Of a stretch of 64,000 nucleotides of DNA, positions 32,163-46,373 are shown one piece after another. The notes beneath the pieces are model-generated. The model worked only from the letters and a program-made list of their open reading frames with translations, was not told the DNA's origin and did not search any database. Numbering within the stretch: the stretch's first letter is position 1; every line of letters starts with the position of its first letter. The position numbers and the translations under genes were made by a program. Source of the DNA: Chloroflexota bacterium (GTDB lineage: Bacteria; Chloroflexota; UBA11872; VXOZ01); assembly GCA_964291655.2 (NCBI GenBank), contig OZ219802.1, positions 352,001-416,000 on the forward strand, given 5' to 3'.

Positions 32163-33458
32163 ATGGACCGCATCACCCTTGAGAACTTCCGCTGTTTCCG
32201 AGAGAAGCAATCAGCGCGTTTGGCCCCGCTGACCCTTCTTGTTGGCAACAATAGTACGGGAAAGACATCTTTCTTGGCGCTAGTCCGCGCGTTATGGGAC
32301 ACCGCCTTCTTGGACAGAGTACCGGACTTTCGAGAGGATCCATTCGACCTTGGTACGTTTCAAGACATCGCTCACAATCGCGGCGGTAGAGGTAGCCAAG
32401 CAACATCTTTCGATGCAGGATTCAACTACAGAGAAAAACAAACTCCAATCAAGACAAAAAGAGGCATTTCATTTCACGTCTCATTTATTGAACGCAATTC
32501 TGTCCCCTATCCGATCATGCACTCCATCACCGGGAACAATGTAGAGTTCCAAGCAGCCAAGCAGGAGGATGGGAGCTACCTCCTGCGTCTTGGCGCACCT
32601 GATTCCAGTAGAGAGGTAGCTGTAGACCACGGAATATTCTTGCAAGATGAAATGTTCGTATTTCCTCTAAAGCATTTAATTTCAGAATTCGCTAGACGTG
32701 ACAGAGGCGATGAGCTAAAGGAATTGACCGAAATCCTACATGAGTCATTGAGTTCAGTAATCGAAGGAAAACGACCTGTTGCGAGTGCACCGATCCGTTC
32801 GCGCCCACGCCGTACGTACGATCCATCTCGCCCTACAAGGGATCCTGAAGGTGAATACGTGCCCACATTTCTAGCAAGCATCTCTGGCCGTAAAAAGAAA
32901 GACTGGATAGTTCTTCGAGACGCGCTCGAAGAATTCGGGCGAGAATCAGGACTGTTTGATGAGATTGACATTAAGCTACTTGGCAAGACTGAAGGATCAC
33001 CATTCCAAGTTCAAGTTCGAAAGTTTGGCGGACGATTGAAAGGCGTCAAGCGCAATCTTATAGACGTTGGCTACGGCGTGAGCCAAGCGTTGCCGCTACT
33101 TACCGAGCTACTTCGTGAAGATGCGTCTTCCATGTACTTGATGCAACAACCAGAAGTTCACCTCCATCCCAGCGCCCAAGCCGCCCTCGGCAGCCTATTT
33201 TGCAAACTTGCCGGCTCGGAATTTCAACTCATTGTAGAGACTCACAGCAACTATATCCTTGACCGCGTCCGCATGGATGTTCGCGACAAGAAGACAGATC
33301 TCAAACCGGAAGACGTTTCGATCCTCTTCTTCGAAGCCGGCGAGCTTGACGTCACCATTCATTCACTGCGTCTGGACCAAGAAGGCAATGTCCTGGATGC
33401 GCCGCCGGGATACGGGCAGTTTTTCATGGATGAAACACGACGCTCTATCGGAATCTAA
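32163..33458 (+). CDS. ABC-type/AAA_21-like ATPase (DUF3696-like C-terminus)
   Basis: ITLENFRCF, GNNSTGKT, DVGYGVSQ.LP, QQPEVHLHP, IVETHS. Confidence 0.85.
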   Translation: MDRITLENFRCFREKQSARLAPLTLLVGNNSTGKTSFLALVRALWDTAFLDRVPDFREDPFDLGTFQDIAHNRGGRGSQATSFDAGFNYREKQTPIKTKRGISFHVSFIERNSVPYPIMHSITGNNVEFQAAKQEDGSYLLRLGAPDSSREVAVDHGIFLQDEMFVFPLKHLISEFARRDRGDELKELTEILHESLSSVIEGKRPVASAPIRSRPRRTYDPSRPTRDPEGEYVPTFLASISGRKKKDWIVLRDALEEFGRESGLFDEIDIKLLGKTEGSPFQVQVRKFGGRLKGVKRNLIDVGYGVSQALPLLTELLREDASSMYLMQQPEVHLHPSAQAALGSLFCKLAGSEFQLIVETHSNYILDRVRMDVRDKKTDLKPEDVSILFFEAGELDVTIHSLRLDQEGNVLDAPPGYGQFFMDETRRSIGI

Positions 33459-33929
33459 ATGTGTACGATTATCGACGCTAACGTGAGAGACCAGGTCTTT
33501 GGTGACAGCCGACCGAAAGCGGGGGAATACCTTTTCGACCAGCTAAACAGTGATATGAAGAATCTGAAGCTTGTCGTAGGCGGCAAGCTCCTGCAGGAAC
33601 TTAGCCAGTCTACGGCATTTAATACTTGGCTTCAGACTGCACTTCAGTTTGGTAGGGCACAACGGGTTCCTGACGAAGAGGTGGAAATCGCGGCCAAAGA
33701 GTTGCAGCAAAAACAGATCTGCACATCCGACGATGAGCACGTGGTTGCTCTCGCGGAAGTAAGCGGAGCACGCTTACTGTTTACAAACGACAAGCCCCTG
33801 CAGAAAGACTTTGGCAATCGACAGATTCTTGGAGGCATCCAAGGGAAAGTCTACACGACTGTGAAGTACGAACACGTCACAAGTACGCATAAGGCACTTC
33901 TCAGACGTACCGACCTTTGTGGCACTTAG
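33459..33929 (+). CDS. PIN-domain-like protein
   Basis: IIDANV, SDDEHVVALA, LFTND acidic PIN-like motifs; ATG directly follows the ATPase stop. Confidence 0.7.
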   Translation: MCTIIDANVRDQVFGDSRPKAGEYLFDQLNSDMKNLKLVVGGKLLQELSQSTAFNTWLQTALQFGRAQRVPDEEVEIAAKELQQKQICTSDDEHVVALAEVSGARLLFTNDKPLQKDFGNRQILGGIQGKVYTTVKYEHVTSTHKALLRRTDLCGT

Positions 33930-37826: not shown

Positions 37827-39452
37827 ATGCCCAAAGACCGCATGCTCAGCGTAGAAGAAGCGTTCGCGCGCATCGTCTCCCAGTTCTCCGTACTTGAAAC
37901 GGAGACAGTGCCCCTAATGGACACGCTCGGCCGCGTGCTGGCGGAGGACGTGGTGAGCGCCGAAGACGTTCCGGCTTTCGATAACTCGGCAATGGACGGC
38001 TACGCCGTGCGCTTTGCCGACACCAAGGCGGCGAGCGAGGCGCAGCCGGTACCCTTGCGCGTGGTTGGCGACCTGGCCGCCGGTTCAGTTCCTTCTAACC
38101 CACTGGGGGCTGGCGAGGCCGTGCGCATCATGACCGGCGCGCCGGTACCGCCGGGGAGCGACGCTGTGGTGCCGTTTGAGGATACCGACCGCACCGACTG
38201 GGCGAAATTCGGCACGCCCCCCGGCGCAAGCGGCGATCCTGCCACCGTCGGCATCCTGCTGGCGCCGGAGTACCAGGACAACGTGCGTTTTCGCGCGGAA
38301 GACATCAAAGCCGACGAGACCGTGCTCTTGCAAGGACAACGCCTGCGTCCTGCCGAAATTGGTGTGATGGCCTCTTTGGGAAAGTCACAGGTCGCAGTCT
38401 ACCGGCGGCCCGTGGTGGCCGTGATCCCCACCGGTGACGAGGTGATCGAGATTGACCAGCCTTTGCAGCCGGGGCAAGTGCGCAATAGCGCGGCCCACGC
38501 CTTGGAAGCGCTTGTCACTCGCTATGGCGGCATTCCTCGACGACTGCCCGTGGTCGGTGACACAGTTGAAGAGACCCGCGCGGCGCTGCTCTCCTGCCTC
38601 GATTGTGACCTGATCGTGACGATCGGCGGGGTCTCCATGGGCGACTATGACCTCGTGCGCAACGTGCTGGGCGCGGAAGGCGAAATAGATTTCTGGCGCA
38701 TCCGCATGCGCCCCGGCAAGCCGTTGGCTTTCGGACACATTGAGGGACCAGCACGTGCCGCTGATGCCAGCGCACGACCAGATAGAGTAGCGGACACCTC
38801 CGTCATTCCGGCGCAAGCCGGAATCCAGTCTTCGCCCTGCTCACCAGAAGACCCGGTCGCATCCGTCAAGCCCACGAGCGCAACCGAAGAGTATGCAGGT
38901 ACGTCCGACACTCCCGCGCAATCGGGAATACTTCCCTCTCCTGGGGGAGAGGGTCAGAGTGAGGGGGCATTTCCCGCGGAGGTTTCTGGTCCCATCACTC
39001 CCGCGAATGCCTCAGATTCCGTCATTCCCGCAATTGTCTCTGATTCTGTCATTCCCGCGAAAGCGGGAATCCATCTTACTTCCGATGCTCCCAGCCGCCG
39101 CGTCCCCGTGGTCGGCCTGCCCGGCAATCCGGTCTCGGCTTATGTCACCTTCGAGGAATTCGTCCGCCCGGCGCTGCTCGTCATGCAGGGCCACACACAC
39201 CTGCACAAGACCACCGTCACGGCCCGCTTCCTCGACAGCATGGAAAACCACGGCCGCCGCCAGTTCGTGCGCGTGATCGTCGAGCGCGACGACCACGGCT
39301 ACACCGCGCGTCTCACCGGCGAGCAGGGCTCGCAGCTTCTCACGTCCCTCGCCAAAGCCAACGGCCTCGCCATCATCTCCGAGCACACCACTTATGTCGA
39401 GCCCGGCAGCGACGTCACCGTGCAGATGCTCGACTGGCCGGAAGAGGCGTGA
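37827..39452 (+). CDS. moeA: Molybdopterin molybdotransferase MoeA with a ~120-aa in-frame repeat-derived insertion
   Basis: SAMDGYA, IMTGAP.P, TGDE, GGVSMGDYD, RPGKP...GLPGNP, QGS..L..LAKANGL. Confidence 0.92.
   Translation: MPKDRMLSVEEAFARIVSQFSVLETETVPLMDTLGRVLAEDVVSAEDVPAFDNSAMDGYAVRFADTKAASEAQPVPLRVVGDLAAGSVPSNPLGAGEAVRIMTGAPVPPGSDAVVPFEDTDRTDWAKFGTPPGASGDPATVGILLAPEYQDNVRFRAEDIKADETVLLQGQRLRPAEIGVMASLGKSQVAVYRRPVVAVIPTGDEVIEIDQPLQPGQVRNSAAHALEALVTRYGGIPRRLPVVGDTVEETRAALLSCLDCDLIVTIGGVSMGDYDLVRNVLGAEGEIDFWRIRMRPGKPLAFGHIEGPARAADASARPDRVADTSVIPAQAGIQSSPCSPEDPVASVKPTSATEEYAGTSDTPAQSGILPSPGGEGQSEGAFPAEVSGPITPANASDSVIPAIVSDSVIPAKAGIHLTSDAPSRRVPVVGLPGNPVSAYVTFEEFVRPALLVMQGHTHLHKTTVTARFLDSMENHGRRQFVRVIVERDDHGYTARLTGEQGSQLLTSLAKANGLAIISEHTTYVEPGSDVTVQMLDWPEEA
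38802..39073. repeat. Intragenic stack of palindromic elements (GTCATTCCCGCG..CGGGAATC family plus one CCCTCTCC..GGAGAGGG unit)
   Basis: Full copies at 38802-38828 and 39048-39073, partial copies between them, REP-like unit at 38934-38967. Confidence 0.85.
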
Positions 39453-40048: not shown

Positions 40049-40210
40049 ATGTTGATCCAGTGGATGTCGACGCTCAGCACCGTGGACACCATGCTCTTCT
40101 TCATCTCGCTCGTCGTGATCTTCCTCATGCTCGCCATCCCCTTCGCCCTGCTCTTCTCCGTCGCCATCATCGACGAAATCCTCTCCAACCGCTTCAGCAG
40201 CCTGGATTAG
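40049..40210 (+). CDS. Small hydrophobic membrane protein (53 aa)
   Basis: GAGGA RBS, strong C-ending codon bias, long hydrophobic stretch. Confidence 0.55.
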   Translation: MLIQWMSTLSTVDTMLFFISLVVIFLMLAIPFALLFSVAIIDEILSNRFSSLD

Positions 40211-40248
40211 CCCGTCGCTTGCCTCTTGGCTGCCTAGCTCCAATCCAT

Positions 40249-41994
40249 TTACGACGACTCTAAGGAGTCGTTTGCCTTCAAGAAGTCCTCGGGGGCTGTA
40301 AAGGCATTCAAGAAGAGGGGAGTACCGGCAAATGAAAGAGGAGAAACGGGGCCTATGGTCATGAACGAGTACTCCCGAGAGGCTAGGTCGAACGATGATT
40401 GCGGATCACGGAAGAGTTGATAGAGTTCTAGGGCTTTGCTGCGGCCACCAACTAGATCACGCAGAGCCTGAAATTCACTACCCATCGACAGACCAAAACC
40501 GAAGAAGTAGATACGCAATTGATCTGCAATTGCGCGGTCCAGACTTGACAGCGTAGGTGAAATGAACATCCAACCAACCCCATACTTTCGGGTTGTCCGC
40601 ACCGAGTCTATAAAGATTCTCCGGACTTGCTTGATAGTCTCATTGTCAAGACTTCCAGATGGGGCTAAACGATGTGCTTCATCCATTAAGACTAACGTAT
40701 TGAGACTCTTCTTATTGGCATAAGCGTGCTCAGCAGAGACACGAATTCCTTCCAAGAGCCGCCTAATAATGAGTGCCTGAATTGTCTCGTTCCAAAACAA
40801 ACTTTCACTACTCTGAGCTGCTAGGTCCACTATGATCAGAGGTTTGTCTTGGGGATTGAACAAGCTGCTCAGGATTGACCCCACCGATTGTGTTCCGGAT
40901 CGACTCTTGTCAAATAGGCGAGTAATTGGTTGCCAATACTCATAGAATTCATCGGGGTCAGCATCGACATACTGCGAATTAAAGCGATTTCGAGATTCAG
41001 CCCCAAGGTAGAACAGTTCCTGCACACTCTCTTGGCCAAGAATACCCCAAGCCTTTTCGAAAGACTCCCGTTTGTGCAGGTCTGTCAGTTTGACCCTCTT
41101 CTTCTGCAGATTGTCACTCAAGACACCGGCAGCTGCTTCTTGCTTCCCGCCTTTAGATACGCTGAGCCTATCAAAAAACGAGGACTCGCTAAGGACTTGG
41201 GCAAACAAGTCCCACCTATCAAGAACTAGATTCTGCACGCTTATGACCCTCGTCGTTTTCTTGATCCCAGCCAATACTTCCTTGACCGGAAGCTGAAAAC
41301 TCCCCATAGCTCCCGAACCCGAAACATCCTGCGAGAATTCACCTTTTGGGTCGATTACTAGAATGCCCATTCTCTTGTAACGGGCGTAAGCCAGCATGAT
41401 CATTCTTGCTAAGACTGACTTTCCCGAACCCGTCTTGCCGAAAATCCCAAGGTGATAGGCTTCTCCTGCTCCATCAGCACCGGTATCGAAGTGCTTGAAC
41501 CACAGCGGTAGCTTAGGCTTTGAGCCGTAGACATGACCCAAGTAAAAGATCTGTTCCTTGTATGGTTCGAGCAAGACTTCCAAGACCTGATCATCAACTA
41601 GATGTACGTACGTTCCTGTAGCCGGTACCGTCCCAAGACTGCTGGGGCGGTACTTTCCATTCTGGTCAGAAAAGACTGCGCTGACTCCCATCTCACCTTG
41701 GTGGGTATCCTGACGTTCGCTCACAGCATCGACCGTGCCTCGCTGGCGAATCAGGCTCCGCATTGTAGGGTCTTCATGCCAGATGTTTCGCAGTGCTATT
41801 TCAGTAATCTGTCCGAGCGCGTAATGGTCAGAGTTATCTTGTAGGTAACGAAACAAAGCCAGTTCGCCTATTAGCTTTTTGTTGACAGCACTAGCCAAAA
41901 TGTCAAGCGCAAGTTCCGATGTAGAAGACGGAGAACCAATGACGCCTATTCTCTCGGACTGATCAACCAACTTGCTCATTACTTGAATCGACAT
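40249..41994 (-). CDS. herA: HerA-like (DUF87) ATPase/helicase
   Basis: HAS-barrel-like N-terminus, HLGIFGKTGSGKS, VIDPKGEF, LMDEAHR, RKYGVG; directly downstream of nurA. Confidence 0.88.
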   Translation of the reverse strand: MSIQVMSKLVDQSERIGVIGSPSSTSELALDILASAVNKKLIGELALFRYLQDNSDHYALGQITEIALRNIWHEDPTMRSLIRQRGTVDAVSERQDTHQGEMGVSAVFSDQNGKYRPSSLGTVPATGTYVHLVDDQVLEVLLEPYKEQIFYLGHVYGSKPKLPLWFKHFDTGADGAGEAYHLGIFGKTGSGKSVLARMIMLAYARYKRMGILVIDPKGEFSQDVSGSGAMGSFQLPVKEVLAGIKKTTRVISVQNLVLDRWDLFAQVLSESSFFDRLSVSKGGKQEAAAGVLSDNLQKKRVKLTDLHKRESFEKAWGILGQESVQELFYLGAESRNRFNSQYVDADPDEFYEYWQPITRLFDKSRSGTQSVGSILSSLFNPQDKPLIIVDLAAQSSESLFWNETIQALIIRRLLEGIRVSAEHAYANKKSLNTLVLMDEAHRLAPSGSLDNETIKQVRRIFIDSVRTTRKYGVGWMFISPTLSSLDRAIADQLRIYFFGFGLSMGSEFQALRDLVGGRSKALELYQLFRDPQSSFDLASREYSFMTIGPVSPLSFAGTPLFLNAFTAPEDFLKANDSLESS

Positions 41995-41996
41995 TG

Positions 41997-43157
41997 TTAC
42001 CTTCCTGCCTCTGTCCGATAGCTATGAAGGCCAACGAATACATCATCAATGTTGCCTTGGTAGTCTTCCGCAAGATACTGACTGGCAATTTGGCGAAATG
42101 CAGGAACAGCTTGGGGCAAGTGCTTGACCATTCTGTCCGCCAGATAAAGCGGGTATGGTTCCATAATGGCCGCAGTGCCGCACTGGTCCTTGATGCCCTG
42201 CAACGCTATGCTCAGCCGACCTTGATTACTGGCAATGGCTCGGCTCATCTCCAACCGCAAAGCTGGCATATAGGAGTGGGGACGATAGTAGAGAACATAG
42301 ATGTCGCCCAAGAGACTAGTGACTTGGTCGACCAGTTTGTTTATTTCATCTCGTTCAGCGTTTTCGACAATTCCATCGACCACTGAAGTGTCGATGTGCC
42401 ATGGCTGAGAAGGTTGCAATAGTTGAGTAGGTGACGTGTATTCGCCTGCTTCCAAGACAGAGCTAAGTAGTCCACGGTCATCATATGACTCGGGCCAGCC
42501 CAATTCACTACCTATTTCTCGACGAGTAGTGTACTTTGGCACCGCTACCCACTGACGGTCACTACGCTGGGCTGCTAACACAGTACAGTAAGCATCCAAG
42601 AAAAACCTGACTCTCCTGATTAAGTATTCTTCAACGGTCTTGAGGTTTGGATACTCTTTAGCTTTGTTGAATCCTTGATTGAAGTATATGGCTGGCGTGG
42701 TAAATGACCCATCCAAAAGTACAAGCTCGTGAGGGGCGTCTGCGGCCAAGTGCAATTCCATACCAATCATCCCTGCGCGCAAGACAGACCCAGTATCAGG
42801 ATTATGGGCTTCAGTCTCGACATGAACAAAGTGAGTGGGCTCGGGCCAGAACCGTTTCTCAGAAGGAGGAGTCAAACCTTCGACCGCTACCGCGCCCGCT
42901 ACGACCAAATCCGTGGCGAGCAGTCTTTCAACGGCATAAGACCCGTCTACACCACAAGTGGTGGGGCTTTGCACTCGTGGCAGGCTGGAGTCACGTCTTG
43001 CCTTGCCAGAGTCAATTAGCTGGTCGCGCCACTCTTGCTTTTTCTTGCGTAACTCCTCAAAGGACTCCAATAGTTCTTTCCCTATTCCCTTTGTTCGGTT
43101 AAGCACCTCGTCAACAAGCGACTTTGGCAATTCCCTAAAGCTAGACTGTTCGTCCAT
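41997..43157 (-). CDS. nurA: NurA-domain nuclease
   Basis: CGVDGS, LLDGS, VPK, PYPLYLAD motifs; coupled to herA. Confidence 0.85.
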   Translation of the reverse strand: MDEQSSFRELPKSLVDEVLNRTKGIGKELLESFEELRKKKQEWRDQLIDSGKARRDSSLPRVQSPTTCGVDGSYAVERLLATDLVVAGAVAVEGLTPPSEKRFWPEPTHFVHVETEAHNPDTGSVLRAGMIGMELHLAADAPHELVLLDGSFTTPAIYFNQGFNKAKEYPNLKTVEEYLIRRVRFFLDAYCTVLAAQRSDRQWVAVPKYTTRREIGSELGWPESYDDRGLLSSVLEAGEYTSPTQLLQPSQPWHIDTSVVDGIVENAERDEINKLVDQVTSLLGDIYVLYYRPHSYMPALRLEMSRAIASNQGRLSIALQGIKDQCGTAAIMEPYPLYLADRMVKHLPQAVPAFRQIASQYLAEDYQGNIDDVFVGLHSYRTEAGR

Positions 43158-44319
43158 TGCCTTCTCCGTTTGACCATAGCTGCAACTCTTGAGGGCTCCA
43201 GTCAATGTGCCGTTTCTCACGTTGACTACGTGGCATCAGCCATCTTTCACGATACCAACCGAAGAGTTCGCTTACAGGTTGATCATAGTAGTCCAGCTTC
43301 GAAGCACCACCACTTAGGAATTGGCGAGCATTCTCCGCTAACGGAGAAACGAATATCTCTCGATTGATTCCATGATTCCGCCATTCCTGCGGCAACCCCA
43401 ATGCAATGAGCACTTTTTGAAGGACTTCCCTTCTGTTCCTGAAACCATTTCCCCACGCTTGATGCTTAGCAGTAGCCCTTGAGTTTATTCTAGCAAATTC
43501 CACCATAGACTCGTAAATCCCGTTGGAGATGTGGAATTCACCAAACCCACGAGTGAACCCTACCGACCTAAACACCAATCGATCATTGAATCTCAATCGA
43601 TTGTAGAGCGACGACCTACCCAAGGCAGAGGTAGTGGTAACCAGAGCAATCTGCCCGGTTAGCTCTCTTTGCTGAATTAAGGATGCCCTTCCTTCATATT
43701 TGACCCTAAATGCCTCTCGTACTTCATTGCTTGCGGCCAGCAAAGCAATGAGCTTGCCTCCTAGCAAGAATGAATATGGGGGAACCGCTCCCAACACGTA
43801 AGCATCTACAACATGGTGAAGCCTCTCAATTCGACCCTCCTTTTCCCAACCGATCCACTGGTCCCGGTTCTTTAGGCTAAAGACAGGATCCCCCAAGCCG
43901 AAAAGGCCCATCAGCTTGTCCGAGTATTGATCCACTACGAGAAATCTCAATCTTCGCCCATATCCCGAAGACACCGGGATGCTCCAGTGCAGACTTGCAT
44001 ATCGGAATAACAGTTCGTCATTCGTATTCGGATGGACTTCGACCAGCTTGGGGTTGATTTCATCAATATCAATGTCTCTCCCAGAAGCAAAACGTTGTAA
44101 TAGTGAGGGTTCGTGCTTGAGAAGTCCTTTCCTGCGCTGACTCAGTCTATGGTGAACCGCTTCAGAATGCAGGGATCTTATCGTGTCCTTGTCCAAGTCA
44201 TTGGGCAAGTAGAACTGGTTGTCCCGCAGCACAAAACCTTGCTTCTCAAGGGACGCCAGAATGCGTGCTTTGAGGAGTTCTGGATCATTCTTCTCAGTGG
44301 TGTCAGGGTTAGTCGACAA
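43141..44319 (-). CDS. druA: Druantia DruA-like protein (DUF4338)
   Basis: WSIPVSSGYGRRLRFLV.D, GLGDPVF.L..RD.WIGW, VLGAVPPY..LLGGKL.A, TTTSALGRSSLYNR, GFT.G.G; TTG start. Confidence 0.8.
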   Translation of the reverse strand: MSTNPDTTEKNDPELLKARILASLEKQGFVLRDNQFYLPNDLDKDTIRSLHSEAVHHRLSQRRKGLLKHEPSLLQRFASGRDIDIDEINPKLVEVHPNTNDELLFRYASLHWSIPVSSGYGRRLRFLVVDQYSDKLMGLFGLGDPVFSLKNRDQWIGWEKEGRIERLHHVVDAYVLGAVPPYSFLLGGKLIALLAASNEVREAFRVKYEGRASLIQQRELTGQIALVTTTSALGRSSLYNRLRFNDRLVFRSVGFTRGFGEFHISNGIYESMVEFARINSRATAKHQAWGNGFRNRREVLQKVLIALGLPQEWRNHGINREIFVSPLAENARQFLSGGASKLDYYDQPVSELFGWYRERWLMPRSQREKRHIDWSPQELQLWSNGEGNGRTV

Positions 44320-44456
44320 TTGCTAGTCTCGTTCTGCAGTCAGTTTTTCCTGGACCATACCCATTATATGGCAAGATATGGGAATGCATCTGGAGGTAGC
44401 AGCAGCCTTGTCGATTACTTTGGCCGATTCTTGCCCAGCTTGCGAGACACATAGCC

Positions 44457-44492
44457 GAGCGACGCCAACAGAAGAAACCGTCAGCGTCGCTC
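44457..44492 (-). terminator. Hairpin downstream of the substrate-binding protein gene (possible terminator)
   Basis: GAGCGACGCCAAC / GTCAGCGTCGCTC imperfect inverted repeat; no clear U-tract. Confidence 0.35.
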
Positions 44493-44516
44493 CGTGAATT
44501 AGCTGCCTAAACTACC

Positions 44517-46373
44517 CTATTGATCCAACCGGTACAGATACCGAATATCCCACAGCCCATATAGTGTTGGCGTCGTATTCCCGAACTCGTTGCGGGTGGC
44601 GGTGAGGCGTTCGGACTGGGTAGTGTAGATGATGGGGAGGTTTTCGGCGATGATTTCTTGGGCGTAGTGGTAGAGTTCCACGCGCATATCGTGGTCGAGT
44701 TCCTGGCTGGCCTGGATGTAGAGGTGATCGACCAAAGCCTCCCACTCGGTGGCGGGCTCCGGCTGGTTGGGGTACCAGAGGTGGAAGGCCTCGCTGCTAT
44801 GCCAGAAGCTGATACCGCTGTAGGGGTCCGAGCCGCCGGAGAAGCCGACCACCATGGCCTCCCACTCGTAGGAAGTAATCAAACGGTCGACGAGATCGCC
44901 AAACTCGATTGACTCATACTCCGCCTTGACGCCGATCTCCTTCATCCCGTCCGCGATGTGCTGCGTGACGGCCCCGCGCACGGAGTTGTCGCCGTTCGTC
45001 ACCAGCGTAAACTCAATGGTGTTGCCGTCTTTATCCTCGCGAATGCCGTCGCCGTTGGTATCCAGCCAGCCGAGGCTATCCAGGATAGCGTTGGCCTGGG
45101 CGATGTCGTAGGGATACCGGCGCACGTCCGGATTATGAAAATCGCCGGCCGCCGGGCTGATGGAGGCCCACTGCGGGTAGCCGAGCCCGTGCAGGATGTC
45201 CCTGACGATAGCGTCCTTATCGATGCTGTGAGCGACGGCCTGGCGGAACTGCGTATTCTGGAACCAGGCCAGTTTCTCCGGCGGCACGTAGGGCGCGCCG
45301 GTCTCCGCGTTCGCGCCGGGGTTCAGGTTGAAGCCGAGGAACGTGGTGCCGAACGCCGGGCCACGGCGGTGAATGGTAAAGTTGCCCTCCGCTTCCAGCG
45401 TTTTCAGGTCTGCGTACTCCTCGCCCAAGACGCCGTGGACGTCCGTCTCACCGGCTTTGAACAGGGCAAGCTCGGTCTCTAAGTCGTCCACGATGTGATA
45501 GACGATCGTATCCAAGTACGGCAGCGCATTGCCTTGTGCGTCCTGGAGCCAGTAATTGGGATTGTGCCGCAGCACCACGCGTTCATCGACGTCGTAGCGC
45601 TCGATGGTGAACGGGCCGGTGCCGATGACTTCACGCGGGTCTGTCTCGATATCCCACAGGGAAGCGAACGTGCCGTCGTTCACGTGGGGTTCCAGGATGT
45701 GCTTCGGATAGATTGCCGTACCCATGGAGCGCAGGAACGGCGCAAAGGAGACCGGCAGCACGCACTCGATGGTGTACTCATCTAGCGCGCGCACGGTCAT
45801 GCGGCCTTCCGTCCACTCGCCGCTCTCTGCATCTATGTAACGGAAGGTGAAGGCGGCGCGCGTCGTAGTGGGAATGTCGTCGTTGTAGATGATGCGATTG
45901 AAGGTGAAGTCCACATCCTGGGCGGTGAACGGCTCGCCGTCGTGCCAGGTCACGTCTTTGCGCAGGTAGAAAATCCAGGTCATGCCGTCCTCGGAGCGCT
46001 CCCACGACTCAGCCAAAGCCGGTTCCACCTCATTGGTCAACCACGATGTCTCGGTGAGACCTTCGAAGAGATAACCGAGGTACCCGGATGACGAAGAATC
46101 ATTGGCAAGCGCCAGATTAAAGGTCAGCGGTTCGCCAATTGTAGAGTAGGTAATCTGCCCGCCATGCGTGCCGATGGTGTACGCAAACCCCTCGGCACTT
46201 TCCTTGAGTTCGGCGACGATTGTCTCATAATCGTGATCGGCAATAGTTTCGACTTGATCGGGCTGCTCGGTAGGCTGAACCGTGGTGTAGACGCCGCATG
46301 AAGATACGATCAGCACCGCGACGAGCGCCAAAAAGGCGAGCACGAAGCTTCGTGGCCGCAGCCTTGCTCGCAC
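44517..46373 (-). CDS. ABC transporter substrate-binding lipoprotein (family 5, peptide/nickel)
   Basis: Lipobox VSSC, PALAESW, LRKDVTWHDGEPFTAQDV.FT, GTGPF, FRQAVA..ID; GTG start inferred. Confidence 0.9.
   Translation of the reverse strand: MRARLRPRSFVLAFLALVAVLIVSSCGVYTTVQPTEQPDQVETIADHDYETIVAELKESAEGFAYTIGTHGGQITYSTIGEPLTFNLALANDSSSSGYLGYLFEGLTETSWLTNEVEPALAESWERSEDGMTWIFYLRKDVTWHDGEPFTAQDVDFTFNRIIYNDDIPTTTRAAFTFRYIDAESGEWTEGRMTVRALDEYTIECVLPVSFAPFLRSMGTAIYPKHILEPHVNDGTFASLWDIETDPREVIGTGPFTIERYDVDERVVLRHNPNYWLQDAQGNALPYLDTIVYHIVDDLETELALFKAGETDVHGVLGEEYADLKTLEAEGNFTIHRRGPAFGTTFLGFNLNPGANAETGAPYVPPEKLAWFQNTQFRQAVAHSIDKDAIVRDILHGLGYPQWASISPAAGDFHNPDVRRYPYDIAQANAILDSLGWLDTNGDGIREDKDGNTIEFTLVTNGDNSVRGAVTQHIADGMKEIGVKAEYESIEFGDLVDRLITSYEWEAMVVGFSGGSDPYSGISFWHSSEAFHLWYPNQPEPATEWEALVDHLYIQASQELDHDMRVELYHYAQEIIAENLPIIYTTQSERLTATRNEFGNTTPTLYGLWDIRYLYRLDQ

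Follow-up and report, generated by a model that had tools for sequence, protein, structure and literature searches.

A horizontally transferred druA-nurA-herA cassette conserved across bacterial phyla as a candidate DNA-degrading defence system

A 64,000-nt stretch of the genome of a Chloroflexota bacterium (assembly GCA_964291655.2, contig OZ219802.1, positions 352,001 to 416,000; hereafter the window) carries, on its minus strand, a cassette of three genes: druA (DUF4338), a nurA-like nuclease gene, and a herA-like gene for an ATPase of the FtsK/HerA class. The trio recurs in a broad range of phyla and is, very probably, a conserved and functional unit. It is likely that the cassette defends its carriers against phages or plasmids. 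In the reading that is preferred here, although tentatively and with slightly more doubt than conviction, it is a mobile cassette directed against invading DNA, in which NurA-HerA degrades DNA and DruA marks or licenses the DNA of the host.

In a protein collection clustered at 90%, 2264 relatives of the NurA-like protein were found at E ≤ 1e-3. For comparison of gene order, the best 80 of 222 confirmed stretches (one genome per species, picked by NurA similarity) were used. With the window proteins as tblastn queries, DruA was found directly upstream of the NurA-like gene in 74 of the 80 loci, and HerA directly downstream of it in 78. In L047, the C-terminus of DruA lies at the contig edge and was detected with a closer query, in L043 and L053 a short, divergent DruA was detected by Pfam, and in L033 the genes follow the order NurA-HerA-DruA, which brings the DruA total to 78 loci as well. 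Synteny of the three genes in unrelated genomes, without which the initial annotation would not have upheld its candidate defence operon, is borne out by these counts. According to the record titles, the loci belong to Chloroflexota, Poribacteria, Latescibacteria, Planctomycetota, Verrucomicrobiota, Acidobacteriota, Bacillota, Cyanobacteriota, Bipolaricaulota, Armatimonadota, Zixibacteria, Thermodesulfobacteriota, and one Thermoproteota archaeon bin. The whole trio is also present on three IMG/VR viral contigs. When all flanking open reading frames (ORFs) were clustered, no further gene recurred as a fourth member; the largest of these clusters is found in 10 loci.

Within the phylum, adjacency was determined from the coordinates of DruA and NurA in an even set of 401 Chloroflexota genomes. 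The DruA family is present in 29 of these and the NurA-like profile matches in 33. Of the 29 genomes with DruA, 16 have it beside a NurA-like gene, and 17 if G192 is included, a genome in which the order is NurA-HerA-DruA, the G–C content is 0.36, and NurA is missed by the NurA-like profile. Among the 18 genomes with a full-length DruA match, DruA adjoins a NurA-like gene in 14; one DruA of the sample is located at a contig end. Two genomes, G248 and G392, show a Druantia-type context, with DruA beside a DEAD+MZB helicase of 1820–1875 aa and a PD-(D/E)XK nuclease. Upstream of DruA, the locus of G248 (L113) encodes two large unknown proteins and a WYL regulator, and the DruA of G392 (L112) has an extra N-terminal extension of ~180 aa and lies beside a primase-polymerase and a serine recombinase. 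On plasmids, five-gene Druantia I operons of the canonical type contain DruAs that are ~40% identical to the window DruA. Three supported clades emerge from a quick maximum-likelihood tree built on 57 DruA sequences, a DruE-linked clade (6 rows; support by the Shimodaira–Hasegawa-like approximate likelihood ratio test (SH-aLRT), 99) and two cassette clades, I (11 rows, among them that of the window; support, 98) and II (39 rows; support, 97). How the three clades branch relative to one another is not settled in this tree, and the direction of DruA recruitment is not readable from it.

The likeness to the DruAs of canonical plasmid druABCDE operons would also suit a type I Druantia remnant, with DruA lying by chance beside an unrelated NurA-HerA pair. 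Such an origin is contradicted by the conservation of the trio in 78 of the 80 loci and by its translational coupling, and is so improbable as to be nearly negligible. The cassette DruAs form two large clades apart from the DruE-linked one, and the genome has no DruE-type helicase: a search of the whole genome (97.6% complete) for PF09369, the hallmark of DruE, found nothing, with control matches in 8 of 14 genomes. PADLOC likewise gave no match to DruB-D among seven local proteins. It had been stated initially that neither DruB-E nor Mre11/Rad50 (SbcCD-like) genes lie nearby, and none was found between 26 and 58 kb of the window.

The first gene of the cassette is replaceable. In one Chloroflexota genus, the first position is occupied by a GT1-type glycosyltransferase (Pfam EryCIII-like_C, UDPGT, and Glyco_tran_28_C). 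In G331 (L111, 4722–8973), the glycosyltransferase gene is placed end-to-end with NurA-like (42% identity) and HerA (57% identity) genes, and it adjoins a NurA-like gene in all five genomes examined (G331, G197, G261, G324, and G339). The glycosyltransferases of this genus share 89–96% identity with one another. The occurrence of two unrelated transferases in the same slot argues for a modifying role for that slot.

Decay of the cassette was found to be asymmetric. All three loci with a lost or frameshifted DruA also have a damaged NurA or HerA: in L057, NurA is without its first 33–39 residues and lies behind a Mutator-family transposase, in L071 an internal deletion of HerA has removed the Walker A region, and L062 has no HerA. 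In G339, the glycosyltransferase is intact and NurA has several stop codons, and in G294 DruA is kept and NurA is split across two frames. Intact NurA and HerA of the cassette lineage without the first gene were found in no locus except the divergent pair of G414. This pattern is as expected of a nuclease that does harm when the first gene is missing.

The cassette is horizontally transferred. Its G–C content is below that of both flanks in 46 of the 54 loci having both flanks, with a median deficit of 8 points. Whole-cassette nucleotide identity between Thermogutta (Planctomycetota) and an Acetothermia record (Bipolaricaulota) is 87.5% over 4068 nt, and both cassettes share ~86% nucleotide identity with that of a Pyrinomonas isolate (Acidobacteriota). 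The cassettes of a Verrucomicrobiia bin (L064) and a Terriglobia bin (L065), which represent different phyla, are 100% identical over 2877 nt, owing either to a very recent transfer or to a binning error. The three genes do not always travel with the same partners. In L005, NurA and HerA are 79% and 78% identical to those of the window, but DruA is just 36% identical and falls in clade II; in L058, DruA and NurA are 93% and 97% identical, but HerA just 78%. As judged from these sequences, parts are exchanged between cassettes.

In several assemblies the cassette is found on contigs of just 3–5 kb. A multicopy element, which was considered because of the many contigs of this size, was rejected, since the cassette is single-copy in its own genome and the two copies of a Gemmatales bin are dissimilar. 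These two copies (L022 and L040) lie on separate short contigs and have no detectable nucleotide similarity; either they are different versions in one genome, or the bin is a mixture. A selfish role, as an addiction module or as a self-spreading mobile element whose own mobility the HerA pump and a NurA of RNase H fold perhaps serve, with no net benefit in defence, would be in line with the passage of the cassette between phyla as a unit without its own integrase or transposase, with the several contigs of 3–5 kb, and with the pattern of decay, which also fits an addictive toxin/antidote pair. The lack of terminal repeats (see below) and the single copy in the genome speak against it, and the permuted gene order in some lineages points to selection on function and not on element ends. 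Such an element is considered improbable. Addiction and defence are not mutually exclusive, as in the case of restriction-modification systems.

The features of the locus are listed in Table 1.

Table 1. Coordinates of the cassette genes, the inserted block and its flanks in the window, and of the canonical repair cluster of the same genome.
Feature	Position	Strand	Size	Remarks
druA	43141–44319	-	392 aa	start TTG 44319, stop TAG 43143–43141
nurA-like nuclease gene	41997–43157	-	386 aa	ATG at 43157; ORF listed as 41997–43220
herA-like gene, FtsK/HerA-class ATPase	40249–41994	-	581 aa	ATG at 41994
Whole inserted block	40211–44516			missing from the same site in congeners; from BLAST homology breaks and G–C content
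Region upstream of druA	44320–44516	-		terminator-like hairpin of the preceding transporter gene, then TATAAT 44368–44363; sequence reading
3' tail	40211–40248	-	38 bp	from herA stop to stop of the convergent membrane ORF
Membrane ORF, convergent	40049–40210	+	54 aa	left flank of block
Family-5 solute-binding protein gene	stop at 44517	-		right flank of block
Canonical repair cluster (L103)	G000 contig C1, 86000–104000			Mre11-like 555 aa, Rad50/SMC 971 aa, NurA 398 aa, HerA 624 aa

The three co-oriented genes are tightly coupled, as had been described initially: a reading of the sequence gives an overlap of 17 bp between druA and nurA, and a gap of 2 bp between the end of nurA and the ATG of herA. 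The TTG was kept as the druA start because the ATG near 44288 is out of frame, and relatives that are 86–93% identical to the window DruA align from residue 1. No promoter was called upstream of druA by a consensus scan; from a reading of the sequence, the TATAAT hexamer may serve as the druA promoter. An AT-rich block with abrupt edges, the other feature of the locus noticed at the outset, was recovered both in the G–C profile and by alignment. The G–C content of the block (~4.3 kb) is 0.494, compared with 0.607 in the left flank and 0.587 in the right flank. With a 7.5-kb BLAST query, homology to five congeners (G001, G003, G004, G007, and G015) breaks off at 40210 and restarts at 44516/44517. 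Alignment to the empty site of G001 placed the edges exactly at the stop codons of the two convergent flanking genes. A repeat search of the block revealed no terminal direct or inverted repeats at its ends. The intergenic spacers of the filled site and of the empty site in G001 do not align, and therefore a target duplication is not assessable.

The same chromosomal slot has different cargo in each of these congeners. In G001 it is empty, with 141 unrelated bases between the flanking genes. G015 has a Mrr_cat restriction-type nuclease, and G007 a weak TIR-like protein together with a PDC-S11/DUF4268 protein (PADLOC, 2.8e-112). An N6/N4 methylase-HNH fusion is found in both G003, where it is accompanied by a TPR protein, and G004, where its companion is a 1258-aa protein without family. 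The slot is thus variable, its other occupants being restriction-type and candidate defence genes, and is regarded as a defence hotspot. The two fusions (454 and 468 aa in G003 and G004, respectively) combine the methylase and a C-terminal HNH domain in one polypeptide, and the TPR partner in G003 is 826 aa long; with their partners they constitute compact restriction-modification-like cargo of unclear type.

The cassette is accessory. A NurA-like gene is present in 3 of 16 congeners and in none of 24 genomes from five other families of the class (40 relatives in total). In two of the congeners it occupies the same site and shares 91–97% identity; in the third it lies at another locus and is 29% identical. 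An independent version of the trio in the congener G008, likewise at another locus, has identities of 53% for DruA, 26% for NurA, and 36% for HerA, and lies beside an Eco57I-like methylase. The other contig of the genome encodes a further pair, NurA (Pfam, 1.3e-27) and HerA (5.7e-34), directly after an Mre11-like phosphoesterase and a Rad50/SMC protein. These canonical NurA and HerA genes are parted by two unrelated genes, for a 198-aa ORF and an HpcH-type aldolase. The profile of the cassette NurA gave no alignment with the canonical NurA of the genome (hhalign probability, 1.4%). The possibility, raised in the initial annotation as one that would undo its proposal, that the nurA-herA pair is a vertically inherited core repair locus is thus answered in the negative by the distribution among relatives and by the canonical cluster elsewhere in the genome.

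NurA and HerA are established end-resection factors. The cassette might be an accessory repair or recombination module kept in thermophiles and other stress-exposed bacteria, in which a second HerA-NurA machine would resect DNA ends under regulation by DruA as an acetyltransferase. Many carriers are, by their titles, thermophile or hot-spring records, relatives are named 'DNA double-strand break repair nuclease NurA' at NCBI, and the flanks are mostly housekeeping genes. On the other hand, the genome already has Mre11-Rad50-NurA-HerA, with a NurA to which that of the cassette has no profile similarity, and a repair function would leave the patchy distribution in the genus, the low G–C content, the transfer between phyla, and the restriction-type genes that the slot otherwise holds without a ready explanation. 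Moreover, the sole other context of DruA among those examined is that of DruE-type defence operons. A role in repair is, based on these results, unlikely.

To our knowledge, DruA has been without an assigned role since the description of Druantia. The protein of the window matches Pfam PF14236 with an E-value of 1.1e-113 and the DruA model of PADLOC with 3.4e-118. Its AlphaFold2 (AF2) model (pLDDT, the predicted local distance difference test score, 88.4; predicted template modelling score (pTM), 0.87) consists of an N-terminal helical part, a GNAT-fold core at about residues 83–348, and a basic C-terminal helix. Comparison by VIA-align revealed that the best structural match of the model, in a tie with other GNATs, is Mom of phage Mu (8bv8; Z, 9.6; root-mean-square deviation, 4.1; 177 aligned). 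The earlier suggestion that DruA is GNAT/Mom-like therefore holds at the level of fold, and the result is consistent with the placing of DUF4338 among the GNATs by Aravind and colleagues (PMC10853773). In total, 655 of 997 aligned chains have Z ≥ 5, and essentially all of the 50 rows listed represent acyltransferases of the GNAT type. Matches by foldseek against the PDB are weak (E from 1e-3 upward), and a sequence-profile search of the PDB returned nothing meaningful (E of 0.6 and 0.92 for the two best rows). Across 47 sequences, 36 columns are invariant, including an R-L-L-G-G-K stretch after the fourth strand (170–178), which we take to resemble the cofactor (pyrophosphate)-binding loop of GNATs. 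Judging by the model, DruA is an active-looking GNAT-fold transferase. In a viral fold library, DruA best matches uncharacterised proteins from giant viruses and from an uncultured tailed phage, with E-values between 7e-18 and 3e-9; phage Mom is among the matches with an E-value of 9e-3. DruA-like folds in six Synechococcus phages are mentioned in a passage of the Phold preprint.

The NurA-like protein matches Pfam PF09376 (E, 1e-6; score, 28.9 bits; cut-off, 21), and Pfam thereby matched all three of the domains named in the initial annotation, DUF4338, NurA, and DUF87. Its model is of lower quality (pLDDT, 73; residues 71–120 of low confidence). In VIA comparisons, the ten chains with Z of 7.8–12.6 are all NurA or TdpB, and the next row has a Z of 4.7. 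The highest values were obtained with the NurA proteins of T. kodakarensis (12.6; 9x1m_G), S. solfataricus (12.4; 2ygk), and P. furiosus (~11), followed by that of D. radiodurans (8.0) and by TdpB (7.8–7.9; 8wet_G). The family alignment has the invariant residues D71-G72, E116, D149-G150-S151, D341, and H378, of which D71, E116, D149, D341, and H378 may correspond to the known catalytic residues of NurA. A sequence-profile search found no PDB chain at E up to 1. There was no match to the NurA-like protein in the phage collection, one weak match on plasmids, and no family for it in PADLOC-DB v2.0.0.

The HerA-like protein was recognised by DUF87 (E, 7.3e-12) and by the HerA model of PADLOC (1.1e-13); in PADLOC-DB v2.0.0 it is covered, weakly, by the generic HerA and mad8 models. 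Both Walker motifs are invariant in 44 sequences (Walker A, G186-S193, with G186, K187, T188, G189, G191, K192, and S193; Walker B, D438-E439). According to profile comparison, it is weakly related in the PDB to defence-system HerAs (8wiv and 8xau), TdpA, and Sulfolobus HerA, the match with TdpA (E, 4.5e-6) being limited to the Walker A region. A complex prediction from alignments for DruA and NurA, with HerA excluded, gave a score of 0.00, which speaks neither for nor against binding.

From the homology with canonical HerA-NurA, we infer that a hexameric HerA and the NurA-like nuclease would act together as a complex on DNA, threading and degrading it. DruA would, in this mechanism, most likely put an acyl-type mark on the DNA of the host, or license it otherwise, and only unmarked foreign DNA would be destroyed, following a restriction-modification logic as in TdpABC. 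That DruA is a self-marking DNA modifier is conceivable, with doubt somewhat outweighing confidence. The most specific version, in which a Mom-like DruA places a non-methyl, acyl-type mark on the DNA of the host, unmarked DNA is destroyed by NurA-HerA, and in sister cassettes the mark is a sugar added by the glycosyltransferase, must be regarded as rather unlikely in all of its details.

The main rival keeps the defence cassette and changes the part of DruA, which would be a sensor of infection or a regulator of the machine, acylating for example NurA or HerA, a protein of the phage, or a small molecule; in this case, DNA ends or structure would let NurA-HerA distinguish self from non-self, as with RecBCD. 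Many protein N-acetyltransferases match DruA at the same Z as Mom. In addition, DruA evolves faster than its partners and has been swapped between cassettes (L005), as is the case for sensors and specificity subunits. Passages of a paper on canonical HerA-NurA describe digestion of both strands from DNA ends, with the destruction of foreign DNA discussed and proposed by its authors (PMC12977600), and in work by Aravind and colleagues DUF4338 is counted, as a GNAT domain, among the effector-type domains fused to DndF (PMC10853773). The exchange for a glycosyltransferase and the lack of intact effectors without the first gene, few as these cases are, suit a protective modifier better, and a sensor or regulator is considered doubtful.

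A number of observations weigh against DruA as a marker of self DNA and against defence in general. The match with Mom is tied with Naa60, KKT23, and other GNATs at Z of 8.3–9.2 in VIA-align; Mom thus stands level with GNATs acting on proteins and small molecules, and therefore the substrate of DruA could be a protein or a metabolite. In type I Druantia, DruA is not known to modify DNA. The bare NurA-HerA pair of G414, which is of a related lineage, means that NurA-HerA can exist without a partner gene, and the pattern of decay is based on just five loci. The 80 loci were selected by NurA similarity, and the other 142 confirmed stretches lie outside the counts. Metagenome bins make up many of the records, and their taxonomic labels and the contigs assigned to them are possibly wrong. 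The nearest flanking genes of the other loci are mostly housekeeping genes; ~24 of 148 flanking proteins have defence or mobile-element domains, a figure for which there is no baseline, and a formal claim of defence-island enrichment for the 80 loci was dropped for that reason.

No system in PADLOC-DB v2.0.0 covers all three genes, and DruA matches there as a Druantia component only. A description of DruA/DUF4338 together with NurA-HerA was not found in the literature searched either, where the supplementary tables of PADLOC and of YprA-helicase work could list DruA contexts. The combination had not been recognised at the outset as a described system, which agrees with both searches; a system with the same logic, TdpABC, is described. 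It is reportedly a phosphorothioate-based restriction-modification system presented by An et al. (2025) in Nat Chem Biol. TdpABC, as known here from passages and from PDB titles, is the closest known system. According to such passages, tdpABC is counted among the phosphorothioate-based restriction-modification systems, and tdpC alone is needed for phosphorothioate synthesis (PMC12914056; Table 1 of PMC13223576); titles of PDB entries indicate a TdpA-TdpB complex with DNA (8wet and 8wfd). As far as these sources go, both systems consist of three genes, one for a modifier, one for an ATPase resembling HerA (TdpA in TdpABC), and one for a nuclease resembling NurA (TdpB), and the reported occurrence of TdpABC in extremophiles is a further likeness. 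The fold match of the cassette NurA with TdpB and the profile match of the cassette HerA with TdpA indicate a distant relationship. In contrast, the modifier slot of the cassette holds the GNAT-fold DruA (a glycosyltransferase in one genus) and not the phosphorothioate synthase TdpC, and the cassette NurA has no match with TdpB at the sequence level and is structurally nearer to archaeal NurA (Z, 12.6). Judged by gene content, with no TdpC model, a tdpC gene is not among the genes of the block, in which druA is the sole third gene.

With type I Druantia, the cassette shares a full-length DruA, ~40% identical to those of the plasmid operons, and its place as the first gene of the operon; it differs in having no DruB, DruC, or DruD at the locus and no DruE in the genome, NurA-HerA standing in the place of the effector. 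The canonical HerA-NurA of archaea and Deinococcus has the same NurA fold, a HerA with intact Walker motifs, and adjacent coupled genes, whereas the cassette is unlinked to Mre11-Rad50, accessory, low in G–C, mobile, and paired with a transferase gene. A nurA-csm6-herA cluster beside CRISPR arrays is also mentioned in the passages on canonical HerA-NurA (PMC12977600). Sir2-HerA and DUF4297-HerA likewise combine an ATPase of the HerA family with an effector in a short mobile operon, and give weak profile matches, but the effector of the cassette is a NurA nuclease, and it has an extra third gene, a transferase. No Sir2 or DUF4297 effector was found beside herA, where Pfam and PADLOC show NurA and DruA only. 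Lastly, Mom of phage Mu is the top structural match of the DruA core, but sequence identity is 12%, the match is shared with other GNATs, and DruA has extra N- and C-terminal parts.

Two other features of the window were observed outside the block. A second patch of low G–C content (0.49–0.51), ~6 kb from the trio (32163–33926, plus strand), bears the gene for an ABC-type ATPase of 431 aa that PADLOC matches to NsnB (1.5e-45), PDC-M55A, and AriA, followed by a 156-aa ORF without a family match; it is possibly another small defence cassette. A 33–40-nt sequence is found at 38795–38837 and 39043–39085, inside the MoeA ORF (37827–39452). Dozens of copies with 93–100% identity occur in each of five congener genomes, and the sequence looks like a dispersed repeat resembling a repetitive extragenic palindrome or a miniature inverted-repeat transposable element (REP/MITE-like). 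The MoeA of the window is 541 aa long, compared with 448 aa in a relative (L011), and has a long insertion in the MoCF_biosynth domain; such repeats may lie in frame within the gene.

In the Chloroflexota sample, the commonest partner of DruA is NurA-HerA (16–17 of the 29 DruA-positive genomes) and not DruB-E, and the trio offers a minimal three-gene system for direct tests of the chemistry of DruA. If DruA does mark DNA, this would be a new epigenetic chemistry in restriction-modification, and the Tdp principle of one modifier combined with a HerA/NurA-like degrader would extend to other transferases. In its most specific version, the reading would yield a family of transferase and NurA-HerA restriction-modification systems with interchangeable chemistries, and type I Druantia would depend on modification too, with DruA as a parallel to the methylase DruM of type II. 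A DNA-marking DruA would, in addition, place a bacterial NurA-HerA pair in immunity instead of repair.

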